Shown piece by piece: positions 11,183 to 64,000 of a DNA stretch of 64,000 nucleotides. The notes beneath the pieces were generated by a model. The model was not told the DNA's origin. It ran no database searches and saw only the letters and a program-made list of their open reading frames with translations. The translations under genes and the position numbers were made by a program. Every line of letters starts with the position of its first letter. Within the stretch, counting starts at the first letter, position 1. This DNA is from a virus (lineage: Duplodnaviria; Heunggongvirae; Uroviricota; Caudoviricetes): positions 37,772-101,771 of IMG/VR virus record IMGVR_UViG_3300026533_000003; one strand, given 5' to 3'.

Positions 11183-11268
11183 GATTTCTCCTTATTCGGT
11201 TAGTAGTACTATACCGGTGGATATGAAGACACCACACAGTATTAATATAACAGTAATTTCTATAGGGC

Positions 11269-12666: not shown

Positions 12667-12892
12667 TGGACTCCTTTTGGTTATACCAGTTAAAGGCTCG
12701 TCTTACTACGTAGCCCCTTACTAGGGAGACTAAAGTAAAGACTGCCGCTATTGTTATGTTCTCTGTTGGGGCTAGTACTATGTGCCAGTAGGAGAATACT
12801 ATCGGCTGTACTACTAGGATACTTAATAGTAGGCCTAGTGCTAGGTTGGTAGAGGTCTCTATTAAGGACATCCTCTTAGATTGACTAGCCAT
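12650..12892 (-). CDS. small membrane protein
   Basis: Two predicted TM helices; 80 aa. Confidence 0.3.
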   Translation of the reverse strand: MASQSKRMSLIETSTNLALGLLLSILVVQPIVFSYWHIVLAPTENITIAAVFTLVSLVRGYVVRRAFNWYNQKESNARNV

Positions 12893-18822: not shown

Positions 18823-20319
18823 TTATACCATTAAGATATCAGTTGTGCCTTTCACTTTCATAGGGTTGTTCTCACAACATACGAAGAAGGTTGATAGGTT
18901 CCTTAGACGAGGGTGTTTAGCCCACTCTTGAGGAATGTCTGAGTAGTTATCAGAGTAAGATAGGAAGATAGTTTTGTTAAGGTCCTTAACGTTGTTATCT
19001 ATCCAGTCGAATACATCTGAGTGGCTAGTGCCTCCTACTACGAATCTAGTTGCTAAGGCTTCTTTGAATTGCTTGTTTTCTGCAATATCATAGTCACTTT
19101 CTAATACGAATTCCTTAACTATACGGGTATCGTGGATAAGCACTGTTAGTTTAGTTATCTGCTTAGATACATCTTCCATTAGGTATAGGAGACGCTGCAA
19201 GGCCTCTGTGGATACTGAGCCTGAGTGATCTACTGATAGTACTAGTTCTAGTTTGGTATCGAAGAATTGCTTCTTAGGTGCCTTATAGATACGACGGTAG
19301 GTATTGTTAAGGTTAGCCCAGTTTGTGCTGTAGTCGTGAGTCATGTAATAGACTTGGCGTTTGAATGAGGCCTTTATCTTCTTGAACCAACCTGTCTCTA
19401 CTTTTATAGATCCGAATAGGGAGTTCATAAGTTTCCCGGCTGTTGTGCCTTTAGTGTTTGTTTGGATTACATCTTGGATTGCTTCGGATAGGTCTGACAT
19501 TGCTGTGTCCAGGTCGTCTACTGAGGTGTCGGTTGCTTTAGTTTTAGCACTTTTACCTCCGTCTTCGTCAGTAGCGTCCCCCTCGTTACCACCGGGATTG
19601 GTTGGTTGAGTAGTTTCTTTACCGTCGAACTCTACTTTGGACATACAGTTAGATACTTGAGTAACTTTAGGTTGCTCGGCACCTTCTTTTAGTAGTTTAA
19701 GGATCTCTATATCGGATAGTTGGTCTTTATGGTATTGGGCATTATATAGGCCTATAGGCTCTATGGTACTCCAGTGAGACTTCAGCTGAGATGCCATAAA
19801 GAGATCTTTTATGCTGTAGTTGATTGCGTAGTCCTCTGCGATATTGACTACTTGGTGAGGGTCTTGTAGGCCATCAGCTATTCGTAACATCATAGTGTTG
19901 TAGCCGCTAGTTATATGCTTACGGATAATATGCTGTAGCTCATGCATATATACAAAGGCAAAGAATACACCATGCCGCTCCATGTGACGCGCTATAGTTT
20001 TTAGTTCGGTTTCATTATGGTATAGGAATTTAAAGTGTACCTCCACATGGTTACCCATCTCTACATACGCTCCAAAGTAGTTCATAAATGTTTTTAACTC
20101 TTTGTCTAGTTTTGGAAGTGGGGCGTTAGTTTGCTCAATTGTTACCTTTACTGGCAGCTTAAGGAATAGTCCTGTACTTAGACCAGCTGTCTTAGTCTTA
20201 CCTAGTAGCAGGTTAGTGTTCTTGGCAATTTCTTTATATACAAAGTCTTCTGCTGTTTTTATAAATTCTGGTATTGTCATATTGGTTCCTTTAATAATTT
20301 GGTAGTGTAGTCTTTTCAA
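18823..20319 (-). CDS. vWA-domain protein with HExxH metallopeptidase-like motif (partner of the MoxR-like ATPase; CobT/ViaA-like)
   Basis: C-terminal MIDAS motif 'LVLSVDHSGSV' (DxSxS); 'MHELQH' zincin-like motif; acidic low-complexity linker; 498 aa. Confidence 0.65.
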   Translation of the reverse strand: MKRLHYQIIKGTNMTIPEFIKTAEDFVYKEIAKNTNLLLGKTKTAGLSTGLFLKLPVKVTIEQTNAPLPKLDKELKTFMNYFGAYVEMGNHVEVHFKFLYHNETELKTIARHMERHGVFFAFVYMHELQHIIRKHITSGYNTMMLRIADGLQDPHQVVNIAEDYAINYSIKDLFMASQLKSHWSTIEPIGLYNAQYHKDQLSDIEILKLLKEGAEQPKVTQVSNCMSKVEFDGKETTQPTNPGGNEGDATDEDGGKSAKTKATDTSVDDLDTAMSDLSEAIQDVIQTNTKGTTAGKLMNSLFGSIKVETGWFKKIKASFKRQVYYMTHDYSTNWANLNNTYRRIYKAPKKQFFDTKLELVLSVDHSGSVSTEALQRLLYLMEDVSKQITKLTVLIHDTRIVKEFVLESDYDIAENKQFKEALATRFVVGGTSHSDVFDWIDNNVKDLNKTIFLSYSDNYSDIPQEWAKHPRLRNLSTFFVCCENNPMKVKGTTDILMV

Positions 20320-22802: not shown

Positions 22803-23888
22803 CGCTTATATTCAGTAGTTATCGTTAGTAACTACCCGCACCATTACGTGCTGCTACACCTCTCGGTGTAGGCTAGACTATATCTTCATCTTTATGTCTT
22901 AACTTTCTTGAACAGGGGAGGCAATATTGAATTGCACCTTCTGCTGATCTAACCATCGTTTGTGTCCACGGACTACTTATTTCGTTAGAACAATTATTAC
23001 AGGTGTATACGCCGAACCACTTGAATTTAAGCTTGTCGCCTATTAGTAGCTGTTTGTATTGCACACCTATTATTGTTCTTCCCCCGATATCTTCGCCGAT
23101 GTGCGTCATGTACTGCTCGAACATATTAGCCTGAACTGTGTGAGTTTTAGTCTTTGCAGACTGAGCTCTTACATTTAGATTCTGGTTATCTGCCGAGTGT
23201 TGCATGTTCTCTGCGTGTGTTACCCATTCTAGATTCTCTACAGTATTATTAGTACCGTCTTTATCTTTGTGGTTAACAAATGGCTTGTTATTAGGGTTAG
23301 GAATAAATGCTTCTGCCACTAGTCTATGCATGTGTACTGTATAATTATTGCCGTTATTAGATAACGAAGCTTTAACGTAAGTTGTATGCATTTGCTTGTG
23401 GTAGCTGCCTGAGCGTACCTTAGTACCGCTCTTAGTCGTGATACGTAAGTTGCCTTTGTCTGATACCTCGTAACGAGTACCGTACTTAGGACTTACTGGT
23501 TTGAATGTTTCTTGATTTTCCATTATACTTCCTTAAATTAGATAAGTAAGTATACCGAAAAATTTCTTAAAGTTAAATAAAGATGTCCCCCATTTCCACT
23601 CACTTGAGTGTACGAGCACAATGCTCTAGTCGTTGAACCTTCTCCTGCACGGAGCTTGGCTGCTGATTGCCTCTATCATTTACTTTTCTAACCGTCAACA
23701 TCTGCTTTCGCGATGCTTGTGGTGTAAATGCTTAACAAGGGTTCCCAGCAATTAAAGGGATGCTAACTACGTATCACTACGTAGAAGGGCTGTAACGTTC
23801 AGCTATTTAGTCTTATCAATAACACTACTATCATTTGTTTATTCTCATCATAGTGTTTTAGGGATACTGTTAATAGCTCACGTCGTTA
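22803..23888 (-). mobile_element. putative group I intron (~1.09 kb) interrupting the MoxR-like ATPase gene, carrying an HNH homing endonuclease
   Basis: The 5' exon ends …GGU|UAA and the 3' end is …AAGCG|AUU. A ~360-nt ORF-free, GC-richer structured segment (23524-23885) lies upstream of the HEG. A GNRA-capped hairpin 'CCUACACC GAGA GGUGUAGC' lies downstream of the HEG. Confidence 0.5.
22873..23523 (-). CDS. HNH homing endonuclease (intron-encoded)
   Basis: 'VNHKDKDGTNNTVENLEWVTHAENMQHS' HNH motif; C-terminal Cys cluster 'CNNCSNE...CLPCSRK'. Confidence 0.75.
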   Translation of the reverse strand: MENQETFKPVSPKYGTRYEVSDKGNLRITTKSGTKVRSGSYHKQMHTTYVKASLSNNGNNYTVHMHRLVAEAFIPNPNNKPFVNHKDKDGTNNTVENLEWVTHAENMQHSADNQNLNVRAQSAKTKTHTVQANMFEQYMTHIGEDIGGRTIIGVQYKQLLIGDKLKFKWFGVYTCNNCSNEISSPWTQTMVRSAEGAIQYCLPCSRKLRHKDEDIV

Positions 23889-25668: not shown

Positions 25669-26463
25669 TTACCATACAGGTATATAGTTGTTGTTAGGAA
25701 GATACTTTCGTACCTTACTGGGTTTCTTATAGGTCTTCTCTTGTCCGTCTTTTAACCATTTAGGTTTAAAGATTAATGAGAGTTGACGAGCTAGTTCTGT
25801 TTTCTCAGTAAGCAACGCTGTGTTTAATGCCCTGGCTTTCACTATGTCTAAATGAAAACCAAGTGCTGTTTGCTCTGCTATTATACTTGCCGCTTTGTGC
25901 TCAATATCTACCACTGCCTCTATAGGAAAGTTAGACTTAGCTAATAGGAATAGTAGTAATCTGGAAGTTAGGCTCACATCCTGGTTACAGTATATGGCCA
26001 TCTCTCTGTTGAGGTGTGAGAAGTCTTCGTAATCTATCTTGAAGTCTCCCATACGTTGTCCAAATGCTTTGGCTGAGTAGGAGCCGAATAGTTTCTTATC
26101 CACGCCAAGGTCACCATCCATTGCAAACAGGTCATCTTTAGAGAAGACTATTTTCGCAAGGATTAAAGTGTCGAGAGGAGTGGATACTATGTCGGTACCT
26201 GCTAGTTTCTGCATCATTGGTACGTCATACCCCATGATGTTATGACCTGCGTTGTAGTCACAAGTGTTTATAAGTGTTACAGCTTGCATTATGCTACCGT
26301 GTGAGTAAGGTACCCAGTGTATGGTGAATATCTTAGCAGGTTCGATTATAACTTCGTCTCTTACTATCTCCACCGACACACAGAATATCTTTGTACTGGG
26401 TATCCAGTCTGCTTCGATATCCCAAACGGCAATGGTTTTTCCTTTAAGCCATTCAGGTATCAT
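25669..26463 (-). CDS. DEDDy 3'-5' exonuclease (DNA polymerase I proofreading-domain homolog, encoded as a separate gene)
   Basis: Exo I 'IAVWDIEADW', Exo II 'NIMGYDVPMM', Exo III 'YCNQDVSLT'; 264 aa. Roughly 8 kb separates it from the polymerase-domain gene. Confidence 0.7.
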   Translation of the reverse strand: MIPEWLKGKTIAVWDIEADWIPSTKIFCVSVEIVRDEVIIEPAKIFTIHWVPYSHGSIMQAVTLINTCDYNAGHNIMGYDVPMMQKLAGTDIVSTPLDTLILAKIVFSKDDLFAMDGDLGVDKKLFGSYSAKAFGQRMGDFKIDYEDFSHLNREMAIYCNQDVSLTSRLLLFLLAKSNFPIEAVVDIEHKAASIIAEQTALGFHLDIVKARALNTALLTEKTELARQLSLIFKPKWLKDGQEKTYKKPSKVRKYLPNNNYIPVW

Positions 26464-41899: not shown

Positions 41900-42287
41900 T
41901 GGTGTGTCCTTTTTGTTAAGTACCTATAAGGTCTATTAAGCCCTCTGATATATGAATAAAATATACGTAGGAGGTATGAGTTGCTTTGAAAATCCCTGAG
42001 GAGGCAGGGTTTAAGGAATTCAGAGGACTTAATAGGCGTTATAGTGGTTGCAGGTCTTCAGGTATCTAGGCAAGGAAGCAACCTCCATCCATGGAGAGTA
42101 TTCTAGAACTGAGAGGACCTGGTGTTGGCATAAGTGGTATGCGAGTGGTTTAATGTCGTTTAGACTGGTGGTAGTTTAATGTCTGCCGAGACAATAGCTG
42201 GTTATAGGTGGTTATCTATATCAGCAGGGTCTATTGGATTTTCGTTAATCCACATTGTGTATTCCTTGTTGGAGAGGTAGTCTAAGA

Positions 42288-42608
42288 CTAGAACTCCGAG
42301 ATGTCTTTAGCTTCAAGAACTTCACCGAGATCGGCTACAGTTAGTTCTACTAAGTTGTTGTTGTACATAGTTGGCAATTGAGCAATAGCTGCTTCTGCAG
42401 GGATATCTTCAACTCTTTGAACTCCAAATACCTCACGAGCCATAGTGTCTGTGATGTTTAAGAAACCAGCATGTTTGCCAGATTTGATTGAGTGGAATGA
42501 TGCTGAGAATTGCATTTTACTTTTGCTTTTTGTTGTTGTGTTTTTCTCGAATGCCATTAATGTCCTTTGCCGCTTGGGTCTTTTTAGATTAGTGCCAGTT
42601 AGAGTCAA
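42288..42608 (-). CDS. small protein, paralog family 2 (probable start at internal 'MAFEKN')
   Basis: Paralogous to 46102..46374 and 47261..47512: shared pattern MAF.K..T...F......G..AGF.N..D.MAR..FGV..V.D...A...LP......E......DI..F. Confidence 0.4.
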   Translation of the reverse strand: MTLTGTNLKRPKRQRTLMAFEKNTTTKSKSKMQFSASFHSIKSGKHAGFLNITDTMAREVFGVQRVEDIPAEAAIAQLPTMYNNNLVELTVADLGEVLEAKDISEF

Positions 42609-42613
42609 GGTGA

Positions 42614-43033
42614 CTATGGTCTATATTGTCGCAGGAGTAAGTAAGGTTCTTCTTTATGATGTTGGTGGATCTCTTTATGGCATGGCTGACATACCGTTAC
42701 TAGATCCTCTAGAGTCTCGTGGTACAGTGTGTTGTAATGTAGATGATGCACATTTAAATTACTTGTTGCCCCACATTGCTTACACCGGTAGCCGTCACGC
42801 TTACGCGTTAGTAATGATAGCTCTCGCCATTCCTCAGACAAAATGTATGCGCGGTGGCTGACGTGGTACTTCTTCAAGGCTGGCCACTCTTTCATGGTGG
42901 TGCCTTCCAGCTTCTCATCTGCAAAGTCCTCGTAGAACTGATCAGGGTCTTCATAGTCCCCTGGTAATGGATGTTTGTCAGTGAATGCCCATATTATAAA
43001 CCATATTGCGACCACTGTTAATGCTGTTTCCAT
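42614..43033 (-). CDS. small HNH nuclease with N-terminal TM helix
   Basis: 'CKQCGATSNLNVHHLHYNTL....CQPCHKEIH'. Confidence 0.5.
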   Translation of the reverse strand: METALTVVAIWFIIWAFTDKHPLPGDYEDPDQFYEDFADEKLEGTTMKEWPALKKYHVSHRAYILSEEWRELSLLTRKRDGYRCKQCGATSNLNVHHLHYNTLYHETLEDLVTVCQPCHKEIHQHHKEEPYLLLRQYRP

Positions 43034-43206
43034 TACTTTCTTCTAGCTTTAACCAGAGCAAGTGTCTCACTTAAGATAATGATAGTTGCATCCAGTGTGT
43101 TGTAGATAGGTACAAAAGCTAGAAAAGTAGATACTGCTGGGGCATCTCCCCTGTATGATTGGTGTGCCAGTGCAATAATTATTGATACGGTGTAGATTGT
43201 TAGCAT
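43033..43206 (-). CDS. small membrane protein (hand-called, 57 aa)
   Basis: MLTIYTVSIIIALAHQS...; its stop overlaps the next ATG. Confidence 0.2.
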   Translation of the reverse strand: MLTIYTVSIIIALAHQSYRGDAPAVSTFLAFVPIYNTLDATIIILSETLALVKARRK

Positions 43207-43458
43207 TATTATTCCTTATTTTTTGTTATCGTAAGACTAATTAAGTTTTACTTTCTTCTGCTCAGTACCTTTCTTCTTATAAATTTTTAAGATGATACAG
43301 TTACTCAATTATTTATCCATAAGATTAATCGAGGAGATAAACTGCTCCTTGCTCCGCTCTAGCCTCGCAGAGACCCAGCGGTAGCGATTATATATGTAGG
43401 GCGACGAAGGAGCATACCTTTTAGAGAAAAAATAAGTACCACCCGAAGGTGGTTGAGG

Positions 43459-44217
43459 TTAGCAGATGTGGTAGGTAGCTTGGTGAGTGTTGCGGACAAA
43501 CTCGGTCACATCTATGCCGAAGTCTTGCTGGCAGAAGTCCTCTAGTATTCTAGATTCGGCTAGGATACGGATTGCTTCTATGTATAGCTCTTGCACTCTC
43601 TCAACATTGTTGGGGTGAGTATCGAATTGGTCGTGGATATGAGTTACTATGAAGCCCTCTTTATGGGCTTTAGTGATTACATAGCGAACTATCCAAGCAT
43701 CTTGTGCATGAATAAAGTTTGGAGCTAGCGAGGTTGCTACTTCTGAAGTACCCACTTCGTTATAGATGTATGGTAACTCTAACCCCTCTACTGCTAGAGT
43801 CCCCTCTATTTTGTTTATTACTGGAATGTAGCTCACATGCCCGTCAAGGCATTTAAATGTGTGGAAGGTAGCTGAGGTATCCCAACGGTCGTTTAGGGCT
43901 TCTAGGGTATTCATAGCACCTGGGAAGAGGACTGATAGAGTTTCATAGAAAGCTTCTAGTTCCGGAGTGTCTTCTCCGAATGCTGAGATTGGCTGGTTAC
44001 GGCTATTGTAGAATGCTGTCATAGTTGGTTTCTTACAGTAAGCTCTAATCTCGCTAAAGCTCTTACCTACAAATATCTCTGAGTTTGGGACTAGAGTTAT
44101 TATGTGTTGAGCAATTAGAGTGTATGGGTCGGCACGGTCCACTTTAGTAGTGTAGTTGTCACGGTTAGCTCTTAGGGCTCTGATTTCTGCTAGTATTATT
44201 TTCTTAGTTCTTCTCAT
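43459..44217 (-). CDS. T7-like single-subunit RNA polymerase, C-terminal fragment
   Basis: 'LAPNFIHAQDAWIVRYVITKAHKEGFIVTHIHDQFDT' aligns to T7 'IAPNFVHSQDGSHLRKTVVWAHEKYGIESFALIHDSFGT' (motif C). 'KKPTMTAFYNS' aligns to 'KRSVMTLAYGS'. Preceded by the RBS CCGTAGGAGG. Confidence 0.8.
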   Translation of the reverse strand: MRRTKKIILAEIRALRANRDNYTTKVDRADPYTLIAQHIITLVPNSEIFVGKSFSEIRAYCKKPTMTAFYNSRNQPISAFGEDTPELEAFYETLSVLFPGAMNTLEALNDRWDTSATFHTFKCLDGHVSYIPVINKIEGTLAVEGLELPYIYNEVGTSEVATSLAPNFIHAQDAWIVRYVITKAHKEGFIVTHIHDQFDTHPNNVERVQELYIEAIRILAESRILEDFCQQDFGIDVTEFVRNTHQATYHIC

Positions 44218-44234
44218 TTGTTCCTCCTACGGAA

Positions 44235-44498
44235 TTATTTGTTACGGTTTAAGTTATAAAGGAATATAACTGCCTCTGCGGTTATTTGTGTTACTGGTTC
44301 CTTCTTAGGGTTGTGACAGTTATCACTACTGTATAGTATTTCTGTGCCTCTTAAGACTAAGTAAGGTTCGGTGGTATGTTTATAGGTAGTTTCTCCTTCT
44401 ACCCAGTGATACCCTTCCTCGAAGGCTATATCTTGTATGACGAGTGAAGTGTCAGGAGTTACCTTAATCATACTATTGTTAGTTAGCACTTTAGGCAT
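44235..44498 (-). CDS. ssRNAP internal fragment (87 aa, shifted frame)
   Basis: Lies between two RNAP fragments in a different frame; 'VLTNNSMIKVTPDTSLVIQ' aligns loosely to T7 'INGTDNEVVTVTDENTGEI'. Its start overlaps the upstream stop (ATGCCTAA). Confidence 0.5.
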   Translation of the reverse strand: MPKVLTNNSMIKVTPDTSLVIQDIAFEEGYHWVEGETTYKHTTEPYLVLRGTEILYSSDNCHNPKKEPVTQITAEAVIFLYNLNRNK

Positions 44499-45303
44499 TT
44501 GCTAGTTCTCTTTCAAGTTCTAGTATTTTCTCATTTGCTTCATCAGTCATCTCACGAATGATATGCGGGTTGACATTAGAATTAGCCCCTCCTACTGTAC
44601 ACCCTGCCATCGCTGACATTAGTTGAATTCCCGAAGCTGTGGCATCGAAGCCGACACGGTGATTAATAGGTTTACACAATATTACACCATTGTTATAGGC
44701 TAGTATTGCTTTGATGAATAGTTCTTGGTCATCGGCTCTATGAGCTTCAGCTAGCATTTGAGTTTCATCAAGAGTCCCATTAAGGAATATATTCTTGATT
44801 AAGCGGTTGGCTCTAGTTATTCTTTCGAAATAAGTTAGCTTATCGTAGCCGTAAGTGTTTGCTATATCTAACTTAAGGTATTTGATGCCTTTAGTAGTTA
44901 GTTCCTCACTGTGTTTGTAGCTGAGCATAGCTTTGCGGTAGGCATTGCCTTGAGGATTACAATGGTACCCCTGGCTATAGCTACGGCCTCTTTTATCGTA
45001 TTTCCACCCGAAGAAGAAGCTGTTGTTGTTCTCTAGTAGGTAATCTATTACTACATCAGTTTCTCGTTGTAGGTGGATGAAGCCTTTCTCTCTCTCTGAT
45101 ACCTCTAGCGGAGTTAAGTCCTCTGAGGGTGCCTTTAGAGTGTCTTTAATGTATGGTAGAATTTCTTCATCAATTTCCCACTCTACTGCTTGAAGAATGT
45201 TTAGGAAGTCAGTGTTGATGTGTTGACCTTTGTCGTTGCCTTTACCGAGTATTGGGCTGTCGTTTTCTTTTGTTAATAGGTGGCTAGTGATTTTCTTATT
45301 CAT
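44491..45303 (-). CDS. ssRNAP middle fragment
   Basis: 'WKYDKRGRSYSQGYHCNPQGNAYRKAML' aligns to T7 'DWRGRVYAVSMFNPQGNDMTKGLL'. 'FDATASGIQLMSAMAGCTVGGANSNVNP' aligns to '[28 protein letters not shown]'. Confidence 0.8.
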   Translation of the reverse strand: MNKKITSHLLTKENDSPILGKGNDKGQHINTDFLNILQAVEWEIDEEILPYIKDTLKAPSEDLTPLEVSEREKGFIHLQRETDVVIDYLLENNNSFFFGWKYDKRGRSYSQGYHCNPQGNAYRKAMLSYKHSEELTTKGIKYLKLDIANTYGYDKLTYFERITRANRLIKNIFLNGTLDETQMLAEAHRADDQELFIKAILAYNNGVILCKPINHRVGFDATASGIQLMSAMAGCTVGGANSNVNPHIIREMTDEANEKILELERELANA

Positions 45304-45304
45304 A

Positions 45305-45451
45305 TTATTTCCTTTTATTTAGCTTGGGTTTACGGTTGAACTTGTATCTATTTAAGATAGCTTGTCCCTCAGCTGGTGTTGTTGCCTTTTGCATTAGAGC
45401 TAGGATTTCATCTAGGTCTTCTGCTTTTAGGTGTGGGTTTAGAGTCTTCAT
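45305..45451 (-). CDS. small ORF between RNAP fragments (48 aa; possibly part of RNAP)
   Basis: Own RBS AACCGTAGGAGGTTAAATG; its stop overlaps the next fragment's start. Confidence 0.3.
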   Translation of the reverse strand: MKTLNPHLKAEDLDEILALMQKATTPAEGQAILNRYKFNRKPKLNKRK

Positions 45452-45465
45452 TTAACCTCCTACGG

Positions 45466-46068
45466 TTATCTTGGAGAGTAGTCCATTGGCTGGATTAAGA
45501 GAGGCGGTAAGTACTTCGTAGCACGAATAGCTGAGTAGAGCTCTAGTGATACTTCCATAGTTGGTACCACTACTGCAGAGTCGCCATGCACTTCTATATG
45601 GCCGTTACGGTTAACTGCACGGTCTTCCTCTTTAACTACACGAACATCAAAGATGCCTATGTGTTGGAATGCTGATAGGAGCTGGATACCTGTAGTTACA
45701 GCATCTATCTGGTCGTAGTGGAGCTTATTACCTATTTGTGTACCTATTGCTTGTATAGGAGCTACACCTGGTAAGGCTACCTCTTTACCACCACGGATTA
45801 CTAAGTCTGGGCGGATTAGGATTATAGCTTCTAGGATTGAATCTACGATGAGTTGCTTTGCCTCATGTAGCCCGTAGTTAGATTGAATCTCTTTAATGCG
45901 AGCTTCGTCCTCTAAGTCGGTACGGTCTTTAGTAAGGAAGTCCTCTGCAACTTGTAGTGCTAGGTCTATATCGTCTTGGTCTATACCTTTGATGAACTCT
46001 TTTGTCCACTCTGCTATATTGTGCTTACCCCACACTGCTTCTGCTAATAATTGGCTATTATAACTCAT
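45466..46068 (-). CDS. ssRNAP N-terminal domain fragment
   Basis: 'TMEVSLELYSAIRATKYLPPLLIQPMDYSP' aligns to T7 'TIELAPEYAEAIATRAGALAGISPMFQPCVVPP'. Terminated by a stop followed by a strong RBS. Confidence 0.7.
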   Translation of the reverse strand: MSYNSQLLAEAVWGKHNIAEWTKEFIKGIDQDDIDLALQVAEDFLTKDRTDLEDEARIKEIQSNYGLHEAKQLIVDSILEAIILIRPDLVIRGGKEVALPGVAPIQAIGTQIGNKLHYDQIDAVTTGIQLLSAFQHIGIFDVRVVKEEDRAVNRNGHIEVHGDSAVVVPTMEVSLELYSAIRATKYLPPLLIQPMDYSPR

Positions 46069-46101
46069 ATTGTTTCTCCTGTTAGTTTATGTTATTTAAT
46101 G

Positions 46102-46374
46102 TTAGAACTGTGTGATGTCTTTGGTTACTAGTTCTGCCTCTGGGTTTGTGACTACCACTTCAAGGTAGTGACTGTTTAGTATTAAAGGCAACTTTTCTAG
46201 TGCTTGTTCGTAAGTAACATCTGCTACTGAACGGACACCGAACGATTTACGAGCCATTACATCTGACATGTTAAAGAAACCTGCTTGGTCACCTGTTGTT
46301 GTGCTTACCATTTGTGCTACGAATTGGTTTCTGTTCTTTGAAGTTGATGCTGTGTTTTGTTTAGTGAATGCCAT
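46102..46374 (-). CDS. small protein, paralog family 2
   Basis: MAFTKQN...; strong RBS AGGAGG; promoter-like motif ~75 nt upstream. Confidence 0.45.
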   Translation of the reverse strand: MAFTKQNTASTSKNRNQFVAQMVSTTTGDQAGFFNMSDVMARKSFGVRSVADVTYEQALEKLPLILNSHYLEVVVTNPEAELVTKDITQF

Positions 46375-46440
46375 AATTAAACCTCCTACGGTTTGGTGTA
46401 CTCTAGGTACTTGGTTAGCCCGAAGGCGGTAGTTCTCTTT

Positions 46441-46463
46441 TCTAGTGCAAATAGCACCTGGTT
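46441..46463 (-). promoter_or_regulatory. conserved promoter-like motif, copy 1
   Basis: Minus-strand TTAACCAGGTGCTATTTGCACTAGAAAAGAG, 70-90 nt upstream of the start at 46374. Confidence 0.45.
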
Positions 46464-46761
46464 AAGATGCTAGTAATTTACGGACTTGTGTGATTGAGCG
46501 ACACTGTGAGGCTTGGGCAAGCAACTCTTTTAGTACTTCTACCTCTTTCTCTAAGGCATCCACTTTAGTGTTTACCGGAGTAATAGCAGGCTTACGAAGG
46601 TCTTTAATAGGGTCGTTCTCATATCTACGAGTGTTTGGGTTGTAAGTTCTTATCATAATATCCTCCTCAGGATTGTTAGTATTGTTTATATGTTGTTGCT
46701 GAAACTGGATATGGTTTAAGCATAGCAGTAATGATTGTGTTAGATAGTTTATCGTTCTCAC
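46462..46761 (-). CDS. hypothetical protein
   Basis: 99-aa ORF. Confidence 0.25.
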   Translation of the reverse strand: MRTINYLTQSLLLCLNHIQFQQQHINNTNNPEEDIMIRTYNPNTRRYENDPIKDLRKPAITPVNTKVDALEKEVEVLKELLAQASQCRSITQVRKLLAS

Positions 46762-46927
46762 GATTGACTTTCTCCATTGCCTTTAGTAGCTTCTTATAAG
46801 CTATATCTTGAGCACTGATTAAGTTCCGTAGCTCCTCTACATCTTGAATAGTGAACTCTACGGTATGGTTAGTGCAAGTATTGATGATTACATTGAGAGT
46901 TTCTCTCCAACGAGTTGGTTTAGACAT
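46676..46927 (-). CDS. hypothetical protein
   Basis: 83-aa ORF. Confidence 0.25.
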   Translation of the reverse strand: MSKPTRWRETLNVIINTCTNHTVEFTIQDVEELRNLISAQDIAYKKLLKAMEKVNRENDKLSNTIITAMLKPYPVSATTYKQY

Positions 46928-46928
46928 A

Positions 46929-47261
46929 TTATTTTCCTTTTAGGGTATTTAGAACTCTTCTATTTAAACCTCTACGGTAGTTATTTAACTCGTAGGTAGG
47001 TAGTGTGACTGGGAGTGTTTTAACATCCTCTTGTAGCATTGCTATTGCCTGGGCTATACACTTTCTAAACTTCTCTGTTGCTCTTCTTTGGTCTTCTAAC
47101 TCTTCGAAGTTAGGTGGTAGGGCACAAGTATGGATAGGAAATAGCTTAGGCAGTAGTCCCTTTAGTTGGGCTACACGGTATGCTGTAATGTTACCCTCTC
47201 TGAACTCTGCTGGAGAGTTGTAAGAGGATGCTTGATGGATAACTCTGGCTAGCAAGGACAT
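46929..47261 (-). CDS. hypothetical protein
   Basis: 110-aa ORF. Confidence 0.3.
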   Translation of the reverse strand: MSLLARVIHQASSYNSPAEFREGNITAYRVAQLKGLLPKLFPIHTCALPPNFEELEDQRRATEKFRKCIAQAIAMLQEDVKTLPVTLPTYELNNYRRGLNRRVLNTLKGK

Positions 47262-47512
47262 TAAAAGTCCTCGATGTTACCAGCAGTTAGTACTTCAGTT
47301 TCTTCAAGTGTTATGGTTTGAGTCGCTAAGTACTCTAAGAGGTTACCTTTGTTGATTGACGCTACCTGCTCAAAGGTTGGCTTCTCTGTGGCACAAGTAG
47401 CTCTTAGGAATGCCTTAGATAGGTTAATGAACCCGACTGTGTTACCGTTGTTAGACTTAATGCTAATCTTGTAACTATGTGTTGGTGTGTTATCTTTTCT
47501 TGGATTAAACAT
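47261..47512 (-). CDS. small protein, paralog family 2 (divergent member)
   Basis: 'GFINLSKAFLRATCA...LLEYLATQTITLEETEVLTAGNIEDF' matches the family pattern. Confidence 0.35.
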   Translation of the reverse strand: MFNPRKDNTPTHSYKISIKSNNGNTVGFINLSKAFLRATCATEKPTFEQVASINKGNLLEYLATQTITLEETEVLTAGNIEDF

Positions 47513-47660
47513 GGTGGTTCCTTTAGTTTAGTTTGTATTCTTTTCCCGTGAAGGTAGCTGTTGGTTAATTGGTTAGCATGGTGTAGTAGACATTGCCCAC
47601 AGGACTGTCAAGGTTAGTGCCATTGCTGTGATGAAGTTAAACATATCTTGGAATATCATT

Positions 47661-48013: not shown

Positions 48014-48340
48014 TTACTCTTCTCTAGTGGAAGTAGCACCTGGTTGGTTAGTTTTTATGGAGGCTTTCTCAGTACGGGTTAGGAATAGCAAGGCTTCAGT
48101 AGAAGCTTTTGCATAGTCTATAGTGATATTCCCCTCGTCGCCATATGCTAGGTGCCAGTTAGCCTCTATAAATAAGGTGTTCACCTTGTAGCCGACATTG
48201 CTTGTAGCTCTTACAAATCCCTCGGCAGTAGTTGATAATATGTCATTATTTAGGGTTACCTTGTTGGCTAGTAGTACTGTTACTAATTCTAGGATGTTGT
48301 CATCGGTTACGGTGTAGTAGGTCATGGGTTGTATTTGCAT
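48014..48340 (-). CDS. hypothetical protein
   Basis: 108-aa ORF. Confidence 0.3.
   Translation of the reverse strand: MQIQPMTYYTVTDDNILELVTVLLANKVTLNNDILSTTAEGFVRATSNVGYKVNTLFIEANWHLAYGDEGNITIDYAKASTEALLFLTRTEKASIKTNQPGATSTREE
48023..48045 (-). promoter_or_regulatory. conserved promoter-like motif, copy 2
   Basis: Minus-strand AACCAACCAGGTGCTACTTCCACTAGAGAAGAG; it lies inside the 3' end of ORF 48014..48340 and ~110 nt upstream of the start at 47912. Confidence 0.4.
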
Positions 48341-49284: not shown

Positions 49285-49331
49285 TATGTCTCCTTGTAAT
49301 TCATATAGTAGTATACCATTGTATACTCTCT

Positions 49332-49354
49332 TCTAGTGCAAATAGCTGTTGGTT
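49332..49354 (-). promoter_or_regulatory. conserved promoter-like motif, copy 3
   Basis: Minus-strand AACCAACAGCTATTTGCACTAGAAGAGAG, ~50 nt upstream of the start at 49284. Confidence 0.4.
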
Positions 49355-49660
49355 TAGCAACCGCTACACCAAATAGATGTGGAGTAGTAGTCGAGGCTTG
49401 GGTGTCCGTCCTTCGTCCTGCCTTCTAGTGTGCTCTTAGTGTGCTCTTGGCTCTGGGCTTGTGTGCTCTTGGTTGGAAAAATAAAGGTAGCCCCGAAGGA
49501 CTACTTAGTGTCTAATACAGCTGATACTTTAGCACCAGCCATCACTAGGGTTGCAATTACATCAGCACTATACTTAGGCTTGACATTTACCTTGCAGACT
49601 CTACCGTGAAGTTTATATTTGATTAACATAGGATGTCCTTATAGTAGTAACCCCGTAGGA

Positions 49661-50053: not shown

Positions 50054-50083
50054 CTTGTTTTAAAGGCCGTAGCCTATGTACTT

Positions 50084-50110
50084 CTAATCAAGTGCAACTA
50101 GCACCTGGTT
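50084..50110 (-). promoter_or_regulatory. conserved promoter-like motif, copy 4
   Basis: Minus-strand CTAACCAGGTGCTAGTTGCACTTGATTAGAAG, ~40 nt upstream of the start at 50053. Confidence 0.4.
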
Positions 50111-50202
50111 AGGTTATCTATTGTATGGACATAGTGGACGAGTTACCGTTACTGTGCCGTCTGATGCTACTGTGTGCATTAGAACTCCTTGAAGTATTTT
50201 AT

Positions 50203-50230
50203 TCTTATCAAGTGCAAGTGGCACATGGTT
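50203..50230 (-). promoter_or_regulatory. conserved promoter-like motif, copy 5 (degenerate)
   Basis: Minus-strand ACAACCATGTGCCACTTGCACTTGATAAGAAT. Confidence 0.3.
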
Positions 50231-50825
50231 GTACAGTTAGTGTTGATAAGTGTGCTCTTGTATTTATTATAGGATTGAGTTTAGGTACCGTTATATGACT
50301 GCTTATGTGGGGGGGCAGGGTATTGTTAATCATCAATTTAGGAGGTATACTACACCTGCTCCCAAAAATATAAAATATTTCACATACACCCATCATACAT
50401 CTACCACATATCCATCAAGCATCTACAAAGCATCTATCAAACATGCTACGCTTGCCTCACAAAAAATAAAAAATTACTATAAGAAACCCCCTCACCTCCC
50501 CCCCCTCCTATAAGCCCTTAGCTATCACCACTCGATAACCTACGGTTACCTCCTGACCTACAACTCCAGTAATACCACTAACACAATTGGATTACGAGTT
50601 TAGGAGGGAAGCCGTAAGGCTAACCGAGTAAAGGAGTACTCCTAAAGCAACACCTACCTCAGCACCAACTGTACTAATACTAGTGCAATCCCTTACCCAT
50701 ACAGCACTCATGCAAGCCCCTACAAGCAACGATACTGCTAAAAGGTACCAGTAGTTGCCGTAAAGGATTAAGCCTCGTGTAAGCCACGTGAGACTATACT
50801 GCTACCAAATTTAAAGGAGGACTCT

Positions 50826-52631: not shown

Positions 52632-53126
52632 TTTAAGGTTATTACGAACTACTCTAAGGTTAATATAATAGTGACAACTTATGCCAGATACAGTACACTT
52701 AAGGTTTAATTAATAGTACCTCACTATAATTACACCACTCCTAAGCAAGAGACCAAAGGCACAGAGGGTAGACTCTATAACCTACAATGATACCTCCCTA
52801 GGTTGTAACTAAGGGCGAGGGACTAGGCAATCTTAGTCAGGTACTTACAGAGGTCAATCAAGTCACCCGCGTAGCAAAGACTTGATACTAATAGGAGCTA
52901 CCAGGCTCCACTTCATATTGAGGTATAGCACAATGGCAGTGCAACTGGTTTTGGTCCAGTTTACGGGGGGATCGTTACCTCCTACCTCATCCACACATCA
53001 GCATTAACTCCAACATATTTGTATTAACTACCCTAAAACCTACATAACTACAACTATACCTTATTTATTAAACTACACTTAAGCCAACTATAGCTATCAT
53101 GCGTTAAATTTTAAAGGATGTAACTA

Positions 53127-57350: not shown

Positions 57351-60300
57351 TGGCTAGTGATTTTTTAAAGCAGGTAAGAGAGATAAGGGGTACAGGTACA
57401 CCAGAGGTTGCACCTACTGATGGAATGTATCATGATATAGCTATTAAGACTACCGATACTGATGGTACACCTAGGTTAGGTGATGGTATGTATGGCAGTA
57501 TGAAAGCCATGTATGGCGGTGTTGTGCCTGTGGTGGAGGACTTAGATAAGATCATTATAGTTAGTGATAATATAGTTAGTGTAATCGGCGTTGCCGATAG
57601 TATAACAGATGTTAACGTAGTCTCAGCAAATATGTCGGCTGTTGCTTCTGTAGCGCTTAATGAGGCTAACATTAATGTAGTTGCAGCAGATATAGCTAAT
57701 GTTAATACTGTGGCTACTAATATAGCTAACGTTAACACGGTGGCTAATTCGTCTACTGAGGTTATTACTGTTGCAGATAATATAGTTGATGTAACCGTTG
57801 TAGCTGCTAATGATGTTAATGTAACTGTTGTTGGCGGTAATATGCCTGATATTAATACTGTTGCTGCTGACACAGTTGCGGTTAACACTGTAGCGGGTAT
57901 TTCAGCTGATGTTACTACAGTTTCTACCGACTCTGCTGATGTTGTTACAGTTGCTTCTAACATAGCTGATGTTACTTCTGTAGCTGATAATATGGCCGAT
58001 GTTAACAACTACGCTAGGACTTACTACGGCAGCCTTACTATAGACCCAACTATAACCACACATCCAACGTTAAGTGTTGGTGACTTGTACTTCAACACCA
58101 CTATAGATATGCTGAAAGTGTATGAGGTTAGTGGTAATTGGACTAATACAGTAAGTACTGTTAATGGCACTAGTGCTAGAGACTCTTTTGTTGCAACGTC
58201 TGGTCAGACGGTGTTCACCCCTTCTGGTGGGTATGACTCAGGATTTATAGATGTATACAAGAACGGTATTAAACTTGTTGATGGGACTGACTTCATAGCT
58301 ACTGATGGTATTGCACTAACTCTATCGCAGGGTGCAGTACTTAATGACTCTATTGAGACAATTGCTTATGGTATCTTTACACTTGCTAATCACTACACTA
58401 AGCTGGAGGCAGACCAAAGAGATGCTTTGAGCACTAAGTGGAAAGGGTTATGGGCTGAAGGGCTGTACGTAACTAATGATATGGCTAGGGATGGGGATTG
58501 GCTAATGGTAGCTAATAAACCTACTAGTGATAGACCAGCACCTCAGCCTAATGGGGAAGTCGAGCATGATACTATTGATGGTACTTTTTTGCCTTCTCAG
58601 TACACTGGTATTGTTTCTATGGAGCATACATACACTATGCTGCAAGCAGGGTGGATCAAGTCACTAAGTATTAAAGTACCTACTTACACCCCTGAATACA
58701 TGTCAAGGGTTATTGTTACTAACGTTACTAATAATGAAGTTACCGTTTATGACAACCCTATCCTTAAAGGTGGTGAGTGGGTTAGTCTTAAGACAGCTAC
58801 AGTTACTACTACTATAGGAGCACAGTTCAAGGTTAAGCTAGAGCTTTACTCCAATGAGAACTCCGCTGTTCTCTCAGGTATATGGGATTCTAACTTAAAC
58901 GATAGCCCTTCAGCAGGTGAGGTTTACTTAGATGACTCCTCAACTCCTACTATAATCACATATAATAACTTTGACTTAGATGGTGTAGATAGAACTACAG
59001 AGCTACAAGGTGTTGTCATAGGTAGTACAATAGATCTTAAGCAACGTACAGATGCTAGTAGGTACTTAACAGTTACAGTAGACTCTATAAGTACTGCAAC
59101 TGCAGGTGAGACAACATATGCAGTAACTCCAGTACTTACAGGTAAAGACCTTAAAGATGGTAAAGAACTTGTATCAGGTATACAACAAGCTTCAACAGTT
59201 CCTACAGAGTATGGCAGTATTGATAACTTCTACTCAGCAGGTACTCCTACATGGGGAGATATTACTACAACATTAAACCTAGGCGGGCTAGTGCAACCAG
59301 TAGTAGGTACGGAAGCGTATGGTATTGATGTAGGGTTCCAAGATGCTTATATAAGCCCGGACTGGGATATTATGAGCACTAGCGGCAGTGGGTCTGGAGG
59401 AGCTACTTCTATAGGAGATGCCCCTAATAATGGCCTTCGCCATACTCGTAGGAATGGCAGCTGGGAAGCAGAGAGTAATGAATCTAGCCCTACTGGACTT
59501 ATTGATGGAGGGGAGCTTAATATAGTCGGTGGTGGAGCTGATGTAGAGGTTTTAGCTGGTGAGGGAGTTAAGGTTGATTCTTATACTAACCCTTACGGGG
59601 CCCCTGCGGTTACTAGACTAAGCTGGAATAGGCTACAAGCAACTATCGTATCTGCTGGTGTCGCAGGTAACATTGTGTACCTAACGTTGGCTGAAGGTGC
59701 CTTAGATGGTCCTGTTGCTAACACTAAAGAAGTGGTACTGAAGCAGTATGTTGTACAGCCAACTCCCCACGAGGCTAGAGATGAAGTCTATTTGGGATAC
59801 GTTTTACATAATGGTACAAGTTGGGGAGAAGTATCAGCACCAGTAGTTGTAAACAACTCAGCTATAACTTTACATGAATACCTTAAAACAGTTAAAGGCC
59901 CATCGTTTACACAAGTTGGTGGCACAGTTACACAACATGCTACTAACTTCACACTAGATAGAGAAGCAGGTATTGTATGGGAACTAAATAGGAACTGGCA
60001 TATAGATAAGAAAGATCCTCACAGAGAGTCATTCAATGCTCAGCCAGAGTTCCAGTTCAAGTACGTTAATAGGGACTTCAGCTCTGTTACTGGCTACACT
60101 AGTACAGTTGACTTAACTCTTTTTGATGATGGTACTGGAGTAGTTACTAACCCTGGAGGCATAAAGAGCACATCTCCTCAGAGGTTATATATTGACCAGA
60201 GGGACAACTACTGGGTTTTAGTAGGACAAGTACTACATGATAACTTCAAAGAGGCTGTAGCTAGACTACCACTAGATGATAACGAGACTGAAGTACCCGC

Positions 60301-61291: not shown

Positions 61292-62554
61292 GTGGATATT
61301 GGTGCTACAGGTGCTAACTCTGCTATAAAGAAGTCAGAGAGCTTCGTAGCCGGTACTCCTAGTGGAGTGTACGATGGAGACCTAACTACATTTACACTCC
61401 TCAAAGGCTATACAGATGGGTATGTAGATGTATTCAGAGAAGGTATGAAACTAGGGCCCACTGAATACTCAGCAGTTGATAGCGCTACTATAGTACTAGC
61501 GTTACCAGCGGTAGCAGGGGATATAATTGATGTGCAGGCATTTGGTAACTTCAATGTAGCTGAACACTACACTAAGCCAGAAGCTAATGCATTGTTAGAT
61601 ACTAAGGCAGACCTAGGAGGTAGTGCGGCTAATACTTTTAAAGTAGGATTTGGGGTACTTGCTGATGAGGCGGTACAGAGGGTACAACTAGATACTAAAG
61701 CGGATCTTAGCTATGTTGACGCCAAACCTACTGGTAGAAAAAACCTACTTATTAATGGTGGGTTTGATATATGGCAGAGAGGTGAGGGTTTTACAAGTGT
61801 TGCTGGAAAGTACCATGCTGATAGATTTGGAAATGGAAGTGGTTTTATAGATGCAACAAAGAGTACAATGTTGTTAAATGGCACAAATGTAAACTCTATA
61901 CTCCTAACAAACTCCTCTACAACAAACTCTACACAACTTAGAGGTAATGTAGAGTTACAAAGTTTAACAAGCATATCTCCTTTTATACCTAATAAAGAGT
62001 ATACAGTTTCTTTTTATGTGCAAGTACAAGAAGACAGTGCTATAGATGTAGGACTATTTTGGGGACATGGGTTAGTAGCAACTACTAGCATTGATGTTAT
62101 TAAGACAACAAGTTTATTAAATGGAGTTGTTACTAAAGTAGAGCAAACTTTCACTATTAATACTTTACCAGATGGGATTAATGATACATCATTGGTGTTT
62201 TTTATAGATAGTAAGGCATCGGTGTCAAACCTTAATATTACTCAGGTACAACTAGAACAAGGCTCAGTAGCTACACCTTTTGAGATACTACCTATAGGTG
62301 AGACTTTGAGTTTATGCCAGAGATACTATGAGGTAGGTAATATTGTTTTTTCTTCGGCAACTTCCGACAATGATAGAATAATTCAAATGTTTCAATATAA
62401 ACAGTCAAAAAGAGTACTACCAACAATTGTTGTTACTAGCATACCCGGAACAGTTGAACTTCGTGATATATTTGATGACTCAGCAAGATTAGACAATACT
62501 CAGGTCGGGACACAATCGCAAGCAACATTAACAATTGATGCAGAAATTTACTAG
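61292..62554 (+). CDS. tail fibre protein 2 (receptor-binding tip candidate)
   Basis: N-terminal 'GYTDGYVDVFREGMKLG..NFNVAEHYTKPEANALLDTK' is paralogous to 'GFIDVYKNGIKLV..TLANHYTKLEADQRDALSTK' in the 1250-aa fibre. C-terminal module shared with 63076..>64000. Confidence 0.65.
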   Translation: MDIGATGANSAIKKSESFVAGTPSGVYDGDLTTFTLLKGYTDGYVDVFREGMKLGPTEYSAVDSATIVLALPAVAGDIIDVQAFGNFNVAEHYTKPEANALLDTKADLGGSAANTFKVGFGVLADEAVQRVQLDTKADLSYVDAKPTGRKNLLINGGFDIWQRGEGFTSVAGKYHADRFGNGSGFIDATKSTMLLNGTNVNSILLTNSSTTNSTQLRGNVELQSLTSISPFIPNKEYTVSFYVQVQEDSAIDVGLFWGHGLVATTSIDVIKTTSLLNGVVTKVEQTFTINTLPDGINDTSLVFFIDSKASVSNLNITQVQLEQGSVATPFEILPIGETLSLCQRYYEVGNIVFSSATSDNDRIIQMFQYKQSKRVLPTIVVTSIPGTVELRDIFDDSARLDNTQVGTQSQATLTIDAEIY

Positions 62555-63076: not shown

Positions 63077-64000
63077 TGGCATTTCCAATAGCACCCTCAG
63101 TAGGGGAAACTTACACACTGGGTAATATCCAGTACGAATGGAATGGGGTAGCCTGGGATGTCTCAGGATCTGTATCAGGGGATGCAGTAGCACTGAAAGC
63201 ATCCACTACGTACGTGGATAGCCAGGACTCACTTTTGGTAAGTAAGTCAGGTGATACCATGACTGGTAATCTTGAAGCACCAAGTATAAGTATAGGTGGA
63301 AATTATGTATCTCCTTACGGTAGAAAAAACCTACTTATTAATGGTGGGTTTGATATATGGAAGAGAGGTGAAAATAAGTCTGTTGCTTCAGGTAAATTCT
63401 TTGCAGATAGATGGTATTATAACACTGGAGGCACTTCATCAATAACAGCAAGCAAATATAGAGAAGGTTCAGCACAAGGTATATATGAGGGTTTAATATC
63501 TGCTCAATTACAAGGTAACGCAAGCTCATATAAAGACTATAGACACAGAATTGAGGATTGTGTTAGGTTGTCAGGAAAGACACTAACACTGTCATTTTTG
63601 ATGGTATCTGACTCAGTTGAAGATATAACTATATTTACTAGAAATGTATACAGTTCTACAGACTCAACTTCTTTTGTATCATCTATCATAGGACAAACAT
63701 CAGGTTTTCTTACTAAGTACACTTATACTTTTACTGTACCATCATACAATGGAGAGACTATAGATGAGAGTAATAGTATAGAACTAGTTATCAGACATGG
63801 GTCAGCATCAGGCACAGTTAGATTAGCACAAGTACAACTAGAACAAGGCTCAGTAGCTACACCTTTTGAGGTGCTACCTATAGGTGAGACTGATATGTTG
63901 TGTAAGAGATATTATCAGATTGCTAATTTTAGATTTAGAGGATATGGATTTTCTGCGGGAAGATCTGAACAGTCTATTTTCATTAATGAAATGAGAGTAA
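63076..64000 (+). CDS. tail fibre protein 3 (partial, continues beyond the window)
   Basis: ATG at 63076, open to the window end. Contains 'GRKNLLINGGFDIWKRGE' and 'VQLEQGSVATPFEVLPIGETDMLCKRYY', near-identical to the corresponding segments of 61292..62554. Confidence 0.6.
   Translation, partial: MAFPIAPSVGETYTLGNIQYEWNGVAWDVSGSVSGDAVALKASTTYVDSQDSLLVSKSGDTMTGNLEAPSISIGGNYVSPYGRKNLLINGGFDIWKRGENKSVASGKFFADRWYYNTGGTSSITASKYREGSAQGIYEGLISAQLQGNASSYKDYRHRIEDCVRLSGKTLTLSFLMVSDSVEDITIFTRNVYSSTDSTSFVSSIIGQTSGFLTKYTYTFTVPSYNGETIDESNSIELVIRHGSASGTVRLAQVQLEQGSVATPFEVLPIGETDMLCKRYYQIANFRFRGYGFSAGRSEQSIFINEMRV

Follow-up and report, generated by a model that had tools for sequence, protein, structure and literature searches.

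Here, we report that an operon on the minus strand of IMGVR_UViG_3300026533_000003, an uncultivated phage (Caudoviricetes), very probably encodes a minimal RNA polymerase (RNAP) of the T7/N4-RNAP-II type as three polypeptides that are predicted to assemble non-covalently. The DNA studied is a window of 64,000 nucleotides (nt), positions 37,772 to 101,771 of the record; the phage genome measures about 86–102 kb and has a G+C content of 41%. A search for near-identical DNA among GenBank phages gave no match and thus no annotated close relative there. The division of the polymerase into three pieces, designated A, B and C, is genuine, conserved and under purifying selection. Judged from sequence, this is a natural three-piece T7-like RNAP with two further cut positions, beyond that of phage N4, in the same fold; literature searches found no described natural three-piece T7-like polymerase, nor these cut sites. 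The three pieces and the two open reading frames (ORFs) between them are as follows, with lengths in amino acids (aa) and with the ribosome-binding site (RBS) where one is listed.

45466..46068, minus strand: ORF1, piece A, 200 aa, polymerase N-terminal domain (PHROG match and fold comparison)
45305..45451, minus strand: ORF2, 48 aa, with a lysine-rich C-terminus, an orphan at the A/B junction, RBS CCGTAGGAGG at 45456–45465; not polymerase
44491..45303, minus strand: ORF3, piece B, 270 aa, end of the N-terminal region, thumb and palm (Pfam PF00940, PDB profile match)
44235..44498, minus strand: ORF4, 87 aa, intervening gene at the B/C junction, its start overlapping the stop of B (ATGCCTAA); not polymerase
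43459..44217, minus strand: ORF5, piece C, 252 aa, fingers and C-terminal palm, RBS CCGTAGGAGG at 44223–44232 (Pfam PF00940)

An earlier annotation made without database searches (the sequence-only reading) had described five minus-strand ORFs here, and ORF calls confirmed their coordinates and lengths. The junction sequences that it quoted are also present in the window and read TAA-CCGTAGGAGGTTAA-ATG after ORF1, then TAATATG, ATGCCTAA and finally TAA-TTCCGTAGGAGGAACAA-ATG. The same reading had counted 4–5 pieces which together made up about 860 aa and aligned colinearly to T7 RNAP. On this point it has to be revised, as the polymerase consists of A, B and C only, amounting to 200, 270 and 252 aa or 722 aa in three ORFs, compared with 673 aa in N4 and 715 aa in Klebsiella phage MY01. 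The closeness of 857 aa, as obtained from five ORFs, to the 883 aa of T7 RNAP is a coincidence.

The assignment of the three pieces relies on several independent comparisons. ORF3 and ORF5, with 32.5 and 38.0 bits, both pass the Pfam PF00940 gathering score of 22, and the motifs that had been quoted from them are real T7-family motifs. The profile phrog_2166, annotated as 'N4-like RNA polymerase', is covered from 57 to 181 by ORF1 and from 188 to 432 by ORF3, while ORF5 matches phrog_2051 (N4 RNAP2-like). When compared by blastp with T7 RNAP and with both RNAP II subunits of N4 and MY01, ORF3 residues 7–133 correspond to the C-terminal half of RNAP1 and residues 136–265 to the first ~130 residues of RNAP2, and ORF5 corresponds to the remainder of RNAP2. 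Profile searches of the PDB gave the same picture: in the N4 RNAP II crystal structure (6DT7), B 14–135 matched RNAP1 145–268 (E 4e-27) and B 139–247 matched RNAP2 6–102, B 86–250 matched T7 398–567, and C 22–191 matched N4 RNAP2 105–266 (E 6e-21). The profile of piece A found no significant sequence-level match in the PDB, and its identity is therefore taken from the PHROG matches and the fold comparison, by which it is an N-terminal domain with a T7-type fold.

The catalytic motifs of B and C align with those of T7 and N4. Piece B carries DKRGRSY, which is the DxxGR motif (D103/R105/R107), and the motif A aspartate D220, all of which are invariant in the family alignment. Piece C carries motif B (R58/K62/Y70), the sequence APNFIHAQD and motif C (H195/D196); the motif B and motif C residues given are again invariant. 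At the ends of the pieces, C terminates in a conserved Y-x-[IL]-C and A in the invariant peptide YLPPxLxxPxDY, the equivalent of T7 residues ~267–278.

ORF2 and ORF4 had no RNAP similarity by blastp or in Pfam and PHROG, and an hmmsearch without filters against the A, B and C profiles, in a six-sequence search, gave E-values of at least 0.24. The end of B and the start of C map to adjacent positions in T7, N4 and unsplit homologues. ORF2 and ORF4 are consequently not polymerase pieces: A, B and C already account for every polymerase segment, and in several relatives the pieces follow one another with nothing in between; by sequence, they are unrelated bystander genes that intervene.

The comparison with orthologues in related phages, which had been named as a check on the split, was carried out on homologues of A, B and C collected from 5.8 billion proteins. 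The A family comprises 39 homologues with 55–88% identity and lengths of 184–207 aa, the B family about 40 homologues with 48–60% identity, mostly of 263–286 aa, and the C family 13 full-length homologues (50–78% identity, 248–256 aa) and one fragment of 184 aa. Genomic context was inspected in 13 related loci, which come from no fewer than 12 different samples and were put together by several assemblers, and their ORFs were each assigned by comparison with the three profiles. In every related locus the A, B and C profiles are each complete within one ORF and in successive order, the breaks fall at the same profile positions in 13 of 13, and the pieces typically measure ~197, ~272 and ~249 aa. 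Three of these loci (L011, L012 and L013) have spacers of only 9–22 nt between the pieces, with GGAGG or AAGGAG, and at some junctions of L005 and L010 the neighbouring genes overlap, in ATGA or TAATATG. Relative to its closest relative, L014, the ratio of non-synonymous to synonymous substitution rates (dN/dS) in the window comes to 0.17 (A), 0.11 (B) and 0.15 (C). A single chain is characteristic of the T7-like superfamily; here the enzyme is spread over three ORFs that all have a separate RBS, ATG and stop, and the locus thus has the form of 'genes in pieces', in which an enzyme gene is cut into adjacent genes under purifying selection.

Two explanations in which the split would be an artefact or a relic had also been raised by the sequence-only reading. 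Sequencing or assembly frameshifts could have broken a single ORF of ~860 aa, and two of the window junctions amount to no more than a 1-nt gap and an 8-nt overlap. Moreover, locus L006 (6071–6822) has its C broken into 52 and 198 aa while the near-identical L005 has an intact C, the broken gene reflecting a true frameshift variant or else a fault of assembly. Against frameshifts, identical break positions are found again in 12 or more independent samples and in different assemblers between sequences that are only 50–88% identical, the junctions consist of a stop, an RBS-bearing spacer and an ATG and are not single indels, the pieces bear terminal extensions specific to the split, and the B protein of the window is recorded identically in three sources, JGI, ENA and Logan. 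Decay into a pseudogene, leaving remnants of a disused polymerase, might be suspected from a gene in fragments among small ORFs of unknown function in a genome rich in mobile endonucleases. The low dN/dS on all three pieces, the invariant catalytic residues and ORFs that are intact in every lineage speak against it, as do the introns in the B genes of L009 and L014, whose removal restores the frame (reconstructed for L014). Since the breaks are conserved in independent, diverged assemblies, dN/dS is low and the catalytic residues do not vary, sequencing error and pseudogene decay are both excluded; we leave virtually no probability to the former and regard the latter as extremely improbable.

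The pieces might instead be rejoined into one chain by RNA splicing, split-intein trans-splicing or ribosomal bypassing. Self-splicing group I introns do occur in B of relatives. In L009 the intron lies within motif A (DATASG^IQ; from 5606–5912 onward; Rfam RF00028, 69 bits), and in L014 and L015 it lies next to DxxGR (RGRSYSQG^YH; ~2720–3265 in L014; RF00028, 78 bits), where excision of 546 nt from L014 with canonical U/G boundaries gives a B ORF of 272 aa. In the literature searched, introns had not been described for T7-like RNAP genes of phages. The two other routes have precedents in phages, with split inteins on either side of endonuclease genes (PMC2677866) and with translational bypassing (bioRxiv 10.1101/2022.08.31.505936). 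Against rejoining, the region 42000–47000 of the window had no Rfam match even at E <= 1, the spacers in relatives are 1–22 nt with their own RBS and ATG and too short for an intron, and the tail of B (~24 aa) and the head of C (~21–28 aa) are helical and charged with no conserved Cys, Ser or Thr after the C head. The B tail is also far below the length of an N-intein half. Rejoining is on these grounds very unlikely, and three separate polypeptides remain the preferred product of the operon.

To place the cuts in the fold, the concatenated pieces were aligned with unsplit homologues, N4 and T7. The A/B cut follows directly upon YLPPxLxxPxDY and corresponds to T7 278/279 (PCVVPPKPW), N4 RNAP1 133/134 and residues 162/163 of the unsplit homologue P0110. 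The B/C cut lies between motif A and motif B and corresponds to T7 ~561, N4 RNAP2 ~99 and P0110 395. The position of the N4 cut (T7 ~453, between DxxGR and motif A) is continuous within piece B. A profile search of IMG/VR recovered 58 more distant loci; all 58 are of the N4 type and cut at B-profile positions 135–138, whereas none of 14 loci of the three-piece clade is cut there, and the N4-type loci are continuous across the B/C boundary wherever the second ORF was covered. The N4-type and three-piece splits are thus mutually exclusive. A single-sequence scan of IMG/VR for peptide patterns found nothing, and its profile version added four clade loci, all of which were already in the set.

The surroundings of the clade indicate in which order the cuts may have arisen. 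A distant relative (P0038, at loci L007 and L008) has A and B fused in a protein of 461 aa and C separate, which suggests that B/C is the older cut. In a HMMER search over 1.84 billion cluster representatives, the B-type family amounted to about one cluster at 50% identity plus fragments and P0038 formed a second cluster, the next relatives being mostly unsplit polymerases of 540–730 aa; the three-piece enzymes therefore make up a narrow clade, surrounded by minimal polymerases that are unsplit. Another protein, P0139 (451 aa), holds B and C on one chain without A and starts at the A/B cut position, and may be an A|BC form, which would be a third architecture, or the product of a gene call cut short. 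Five further candidates for split variants (P0112, P0113, P0117, P0193 and P0195) were rejected, as they end within or shortly after motif B in genes truncated by contig ends. Two ORFs of 201 and 272 aa further downstream in L014 resemble A and B in size, and these too were dismissed since the profiles do not match them.

At the B/C junction, split lineages alone have ~45 extra residues (~55 alignment columns), which are made up of the B tail and the C head, whereas P0110, P0115, P0118, N4 and T7, which are unsplit at this point, have ~7–13 residues there. The two-piece relative L007 (AB|C) possesses these tails as well. The B tail (residues ~247–270) is acidic and predicted to be helical, with a mean net charge of −4.1 over the last 24 residues (n = 32) and the consensus EEAQxRLxELEAELAxL, in which an LxxLExELAxL pattern can be discerned and L263, E266 and L267 are invariant. 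The C head (residues 1 to ~21) is basic and likewise predicted to be helical, with a mean of +3.5 over the first 20 residues (n = 13), the consensus RRTKxQILAEIRxLK and invariant L9, E11 and R13. Hydrophobic residues at a spacing of 3–4 are found in both, and from these sequence features the B tail and the C head probably form a short heterodimeric coiled coil, or 'zipper', which would hold B to C. The A/B junction has no extra tails. There, the invariant C-terminal peptide of A (residues 181–200) has a predicted local confidence (pLDDT) of 30–51 in isolation and is predicted to be disordered, as would fit a docking segment.

In the mechanism that we propose, A, B and C would be translated separately and then assembled non-covalently. 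A would provide the N-terminal promoter-binding and initiation domain, B the thumb and the half of the palm with DxxGR and the motif A aspartate, and C the fingers with motif B, the motif C aspartate and the C-terminal foot. As the catalytic elements are divided between B and C, an active site would exist only in the B+C complex. A would probably dock on B both at the native domain interface and through its invariant C-terminal peptide, which is predicted to be unstructured, and contact between B and C would probably combine the native interface with a short zipper made by the acidic B tail and the basic C head. ORF2 and ORF4 would be unrelated cargo genes in the two breaks. These breaks would have come about when mobile elements, namely free-standing homing endonuclease genes, inserted into a once-continuous gene, probably at B/C first. 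Several points weigh against this reading. Separate translation and assembly into one enzyme are both deduced from the RBS, ATG and stop signals together with conservation; the tails are short, about two heptads; ORF4, conserved in the nearest relatives and translationally coupled to B, may be an accessory subunit; neither window junction has a recognisable endonuclease, ORF2 and ORF4 being devoid of a nuclease signature in Pfam and PHROG; and the mobile-element origin draws on relatives and on analogy.

A more far-reaching idea is that A is a dissociable, sigma-like initiation subunit and that B and C are locked together by an evolved acidic/basic coiled coil, so that the three-piece layout would have a function of its own beyond being tolerated. 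In T7 RNAP, the region equivalent to A recognises the promoter and undergoes refolding on promoter escape. We hold this extension to be rather unlikely as things stand.

What lies within the junctions varies considerably among the lineages. At A/B, five lineages have nothing, the window has ORF2, L010 has an unrelated ORF of 51 aa, and L014 and L015 have an HNH homing endonuclease gene of 251 aa (HNH_3 E 1.6e-14; phrog_99 E 3e-56). At B/C, five lineages again have nothing, while the window, L014 and L016 share the ORF4 family (81–87 aa) and L004 has an ORF of 251 aa with a GIY-YIG match below the Pfam cut-off. In L005 the same junction (5853–6056) contains a chimeric remnant of a duplicated C (67 aa; E 1e-13; 90% DNA identity over 119 nt), in which the start region of C is joined to C codons ~162–203. 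ORF2 has no homologue in any related locus. Its derivation from the HNH gene of L014 was considered and rejected for lack of DNA or protein similarity, and the idea that ORF2 and ORF4 are remnants of duplicated polymerase segments, as in L005, was likewise given up because no similarity was found. The L014 phage, with intron and HNH gene, and the window phage, with neither, co-occur in sample ERZ27262650.

These junction contents also bear on the possibility of a four- or five-subunit enzyme, in which ORF4, and possibly ORF2, would be subunits or regulators added in a sub-clade. In its favour, the three nearest lineages all keep ORF4 at B/C, the overlap of its start with the stop of B would imply co-expression, and ORF2 is preceded by a strong RBS, the same 10-mer as for C. 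However, most relatives have a complete A, B and C and neither ORF, and ORF4 evolves much faster than the polymerase: its homologues in L014 and L016 are 45–50% identical compared with 72–78% for the flanking C, with a dN/dS of 0.57. ORF2 lacks homologues, and both are unlike any polymerase segment. The ORF4 family is kept only in the nearest relatives of the window and matches phrog_17589, of unknown function, and a single-sequence AlphaFold2 model of ORF4 reached a pLDDT of 40 and was unusable. We consider additional subunits unlikely, and three polymerase pieces with two bystander genes the better description.

By analogy with these relatives, the RNAP breaks most likely resulted from insertion of free-standing homing endonuclease genes into a continuous gene. 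Gene fragmentation by mobile elements recurs in this genome, which would make it the most economical origin for the RNAP cuts.

Other genes that appear to be split, and endonuclease genes, were seen in the window. On the minus strand, the family-A DNA polymerase gene appears to be in pieces, the N-terminal part of the polymerase domain (17007–17570) being parted by an endonuclease gene (16254–17000, phrog_681) from the C-terminal part (15372–16136). Exonuclease-like pieces lie separately at 12885–13841 and 25669–26463. The primase family phrog_2135 (713 profile positions) extends over two adjacent minus-strand ORFs, 11269–12666 (profile positions 13–431) and 10286–11182 (455–589), and the primase gene at 10286–12666 is thus possibly split as well. 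Endonuclease genes of the HNH type or related to it number at least four (42614–43033, 22873–23523, 18823–20319 and 16254–17000, all minus), the first of them 425 nt downstream of C.

Among known systems, N4 RNAP II (gp15/RNAP1 and gp16/RNAP2; 6DT7) is the closest solved relative by sequence. It is composed of a gp15-like subunit with the N-terminus, thumb and DxxGR and a gp16-like subunit with motifs A, B and C, cut between DxxGR and motif A, and it has been remarked that gp16 is split into two genes in two N4-like genomes (PMC4496689). The two enzymes share the minimal size class (722 and 673 aa), a truncated N-terminal domain and thumb, the same motifs and similar C-terminal ends (Y-x-L-C in the window, Y-A-L-S in N4). 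Both are encoded by adjacent genes, and in many N4-like phages unrelated ORFs lie between these. Unlike N4 RNAP II, which has two pieces cut at T7 ~453, the window enzyme has two other cuts, none of them shared, and charged tails at the break are found in the window clade and not in N4. By sequence, the window enzyme does not have the architecture that defines the N4 RNAP II-type heterodimer and represents a different split. The sequence-only reading had thought a genuine multi-subunit split of the N4 kind conceivable; the split itself stands, upheld by conserved breaks and low dN/dS, while the number of pieces, the T7-like size and the N4 break position do not. The phage was also searched for other N4 hallmarks in ~74 kb (the window plus 10 kb). 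In N4, the giant virion RNAP (vRNAP) produces the early transcripts from which RNAP II is made. No ORF above 1250 aa and no tblastn match to N4 vRNAP was found, although another ~12–28 kb of the genome lay outside the search and vRNAPs are very divergent. The N4 RNAP II cofactors gp1 and gp2 (ssDNA-binding recruiter) and the N4 single-stranded DNA-binding protein gave no tblastn match at E <= 0.01, which is weak evidence as these are small, fast-evolving proteins. As these four were not found, the enzyme resembles N4 RNAP II in sequence, yet nothing seen here marks the phage as a schitovirus.

T7 RNAP itself is one chain of 883 aa and some 160 aa longer, whereas the window enzyme has three chains. 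A closer functional parallel is provided by engineering. The three-fragment T7 RNAP constructed as a 'resource allocator' (Segall-Shapiro et al. 2014) is expressed from one operon and is active only with all fragments present, and addition of an antiparallel leucine-zipper pair at its C-terminal split raised activity more than 10-fold (PMC4299498). Three fragments and one operon are common to both, and with its B tail and C head the natural enzyme seems to have arrived at a similar device. The split points named for the engineered enzyme are T7 residues 67, 179 and 601, and its zippers are designed SynZIPs, whereas the natural ones are at ~279 and ~561, and in the engineered enzyme the C-terminal fragment carries the specificity loop (PMC4299498). 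A parallel in another enzyme is found in phage Aeh1, where the homing endonuclease gene mobE split nrdA into NrdA-a and NrdA-b and the terminal tails are essential for activity and thought to be interaction domains (Crona et al. 2011; PMC3045599). The adjacent gene pieces, the endonuclease genes at the cuts in relatives and the tails found only in split lineages (at B/C) resemble that system; unlike it, the window has three pieces and not two, its junctions are without an endonuclease, and its tails are clearly acidic and basic helical.

The remaining features of the operon are listed below.

46435..46466, minus strand: 32-nt promoter-like motif of family D1 (one copy), immediately 5' of the operon, a putative promoter (repeat search and weight-matrix scan)
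46102..46374, minus strand: 90-aa gene, first of the operon, candidate accessory factor, RBS CCGTAGGAGG at 46382–46391 (synteny)
43428..43453, minus strand: hairpin ACCACCTTCGGGTGGT and T-run resembling an intrinsic terminator, 6 nt past the stop of C (terminator scan)
46435–46466, 47538–47569, 48017–48048, 49326–49357, 50082–50113 and 50202–50233, minus strand: all D1 copies (weight matrix)

The operon thus reads D1 motif, 90-aa gene, A, ORF2, B, ORF4, C and terminator-like hairpin, the hairpin 3' of C being the sole minus-strand terminator-like site within it. The exact RBS 10-mer CCGTAGGAGG occurs three times in 64 kb against 0.04 expected, and all three occurrences lie within the RNAP operon. 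The six D1 copies lie within 46.4–50.2 kb, every one on the minus strand and 5' of small genes, and are absent elsewhere in the 64 kb; their scores of 38–46 in the weight-matrix scan are well separated from the next site at 15 and from a shuffle maximum of 18. The 4-kb block that contains them ends in the RNAP operon. The minus-strand core of D1 is AACCAGGTGCTAyTTGCACTAGAAAAGAG, the 3' part of which we take to resemble the SP6/T7 promoter core, and a strict pattern search of the loci of relatives gave no match. D1 is probably an early promoter class, as predicted from its distribution. Its use as the genome-wide promoter of the polymerase itself was considered and found unsupported, the copies being confined to the 4-kb early block.

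A homologue of the 90-aa protein is encoded directly upstream of A in every relative (blastp E 3e-39 to 8e-7), and a paralogue with 42% identity is found in the window at 42288–42608 (minus), just downstream of the operon. A probable third copy at 47261–47512 (minus) was not significant by BLAST. The family members are ~83–106 aa long and have an acidic C-terminus with a terminal Phe (DITQF, DISEF, NIEDF), and the 90-aa protein had no Pfam or PHROG match. By position alone, it is a candidate polymerase cofactor.

Elsewhere, the tail-fibre gene region contains internal duplications on the plus strand (61733–62344 and 63319–63930, 83–98% identity, 1586 nt apart), and a repeat with 210-nt spacing is found inside the 1250-aa tail-fibre gene (57549–57809). 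Two phage tRNA genes were identified, tRNA-Arg(CCT) at 32306–32381 (minus) and tRNA-Gln(TTG) at 52919–52993 (plus).

Single-subunit RNAPs are the textbook example of a one-chain transcription machine, and N4 RNAP II is the only well-studied natural exception. The three-piece enzyme carries a warning for annotation, as metagenome annotations currently list its pieces as 'hypothetical protein' or as partial RNA polymerase. The natural split sites and heterodimerising tails could be used in split-polymerase engineering, in which designers had to add a zipper. The series of unsplit, AB|C and A|B|C polymerases provides material on how essential genes survive fragmentation by mobile elements, and the enzyme offers a testable case of a detachable N-terminal domain acting like an initiation factor. 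If A were sigma-like and the zipper real, the enzyme would be a natural counterpart of the engineered T7 polymerase with its core, sigma-fragment and alpha-fragment, and would show a single-subunit polymerase evolving into a regulated multi-subunit enzyme.

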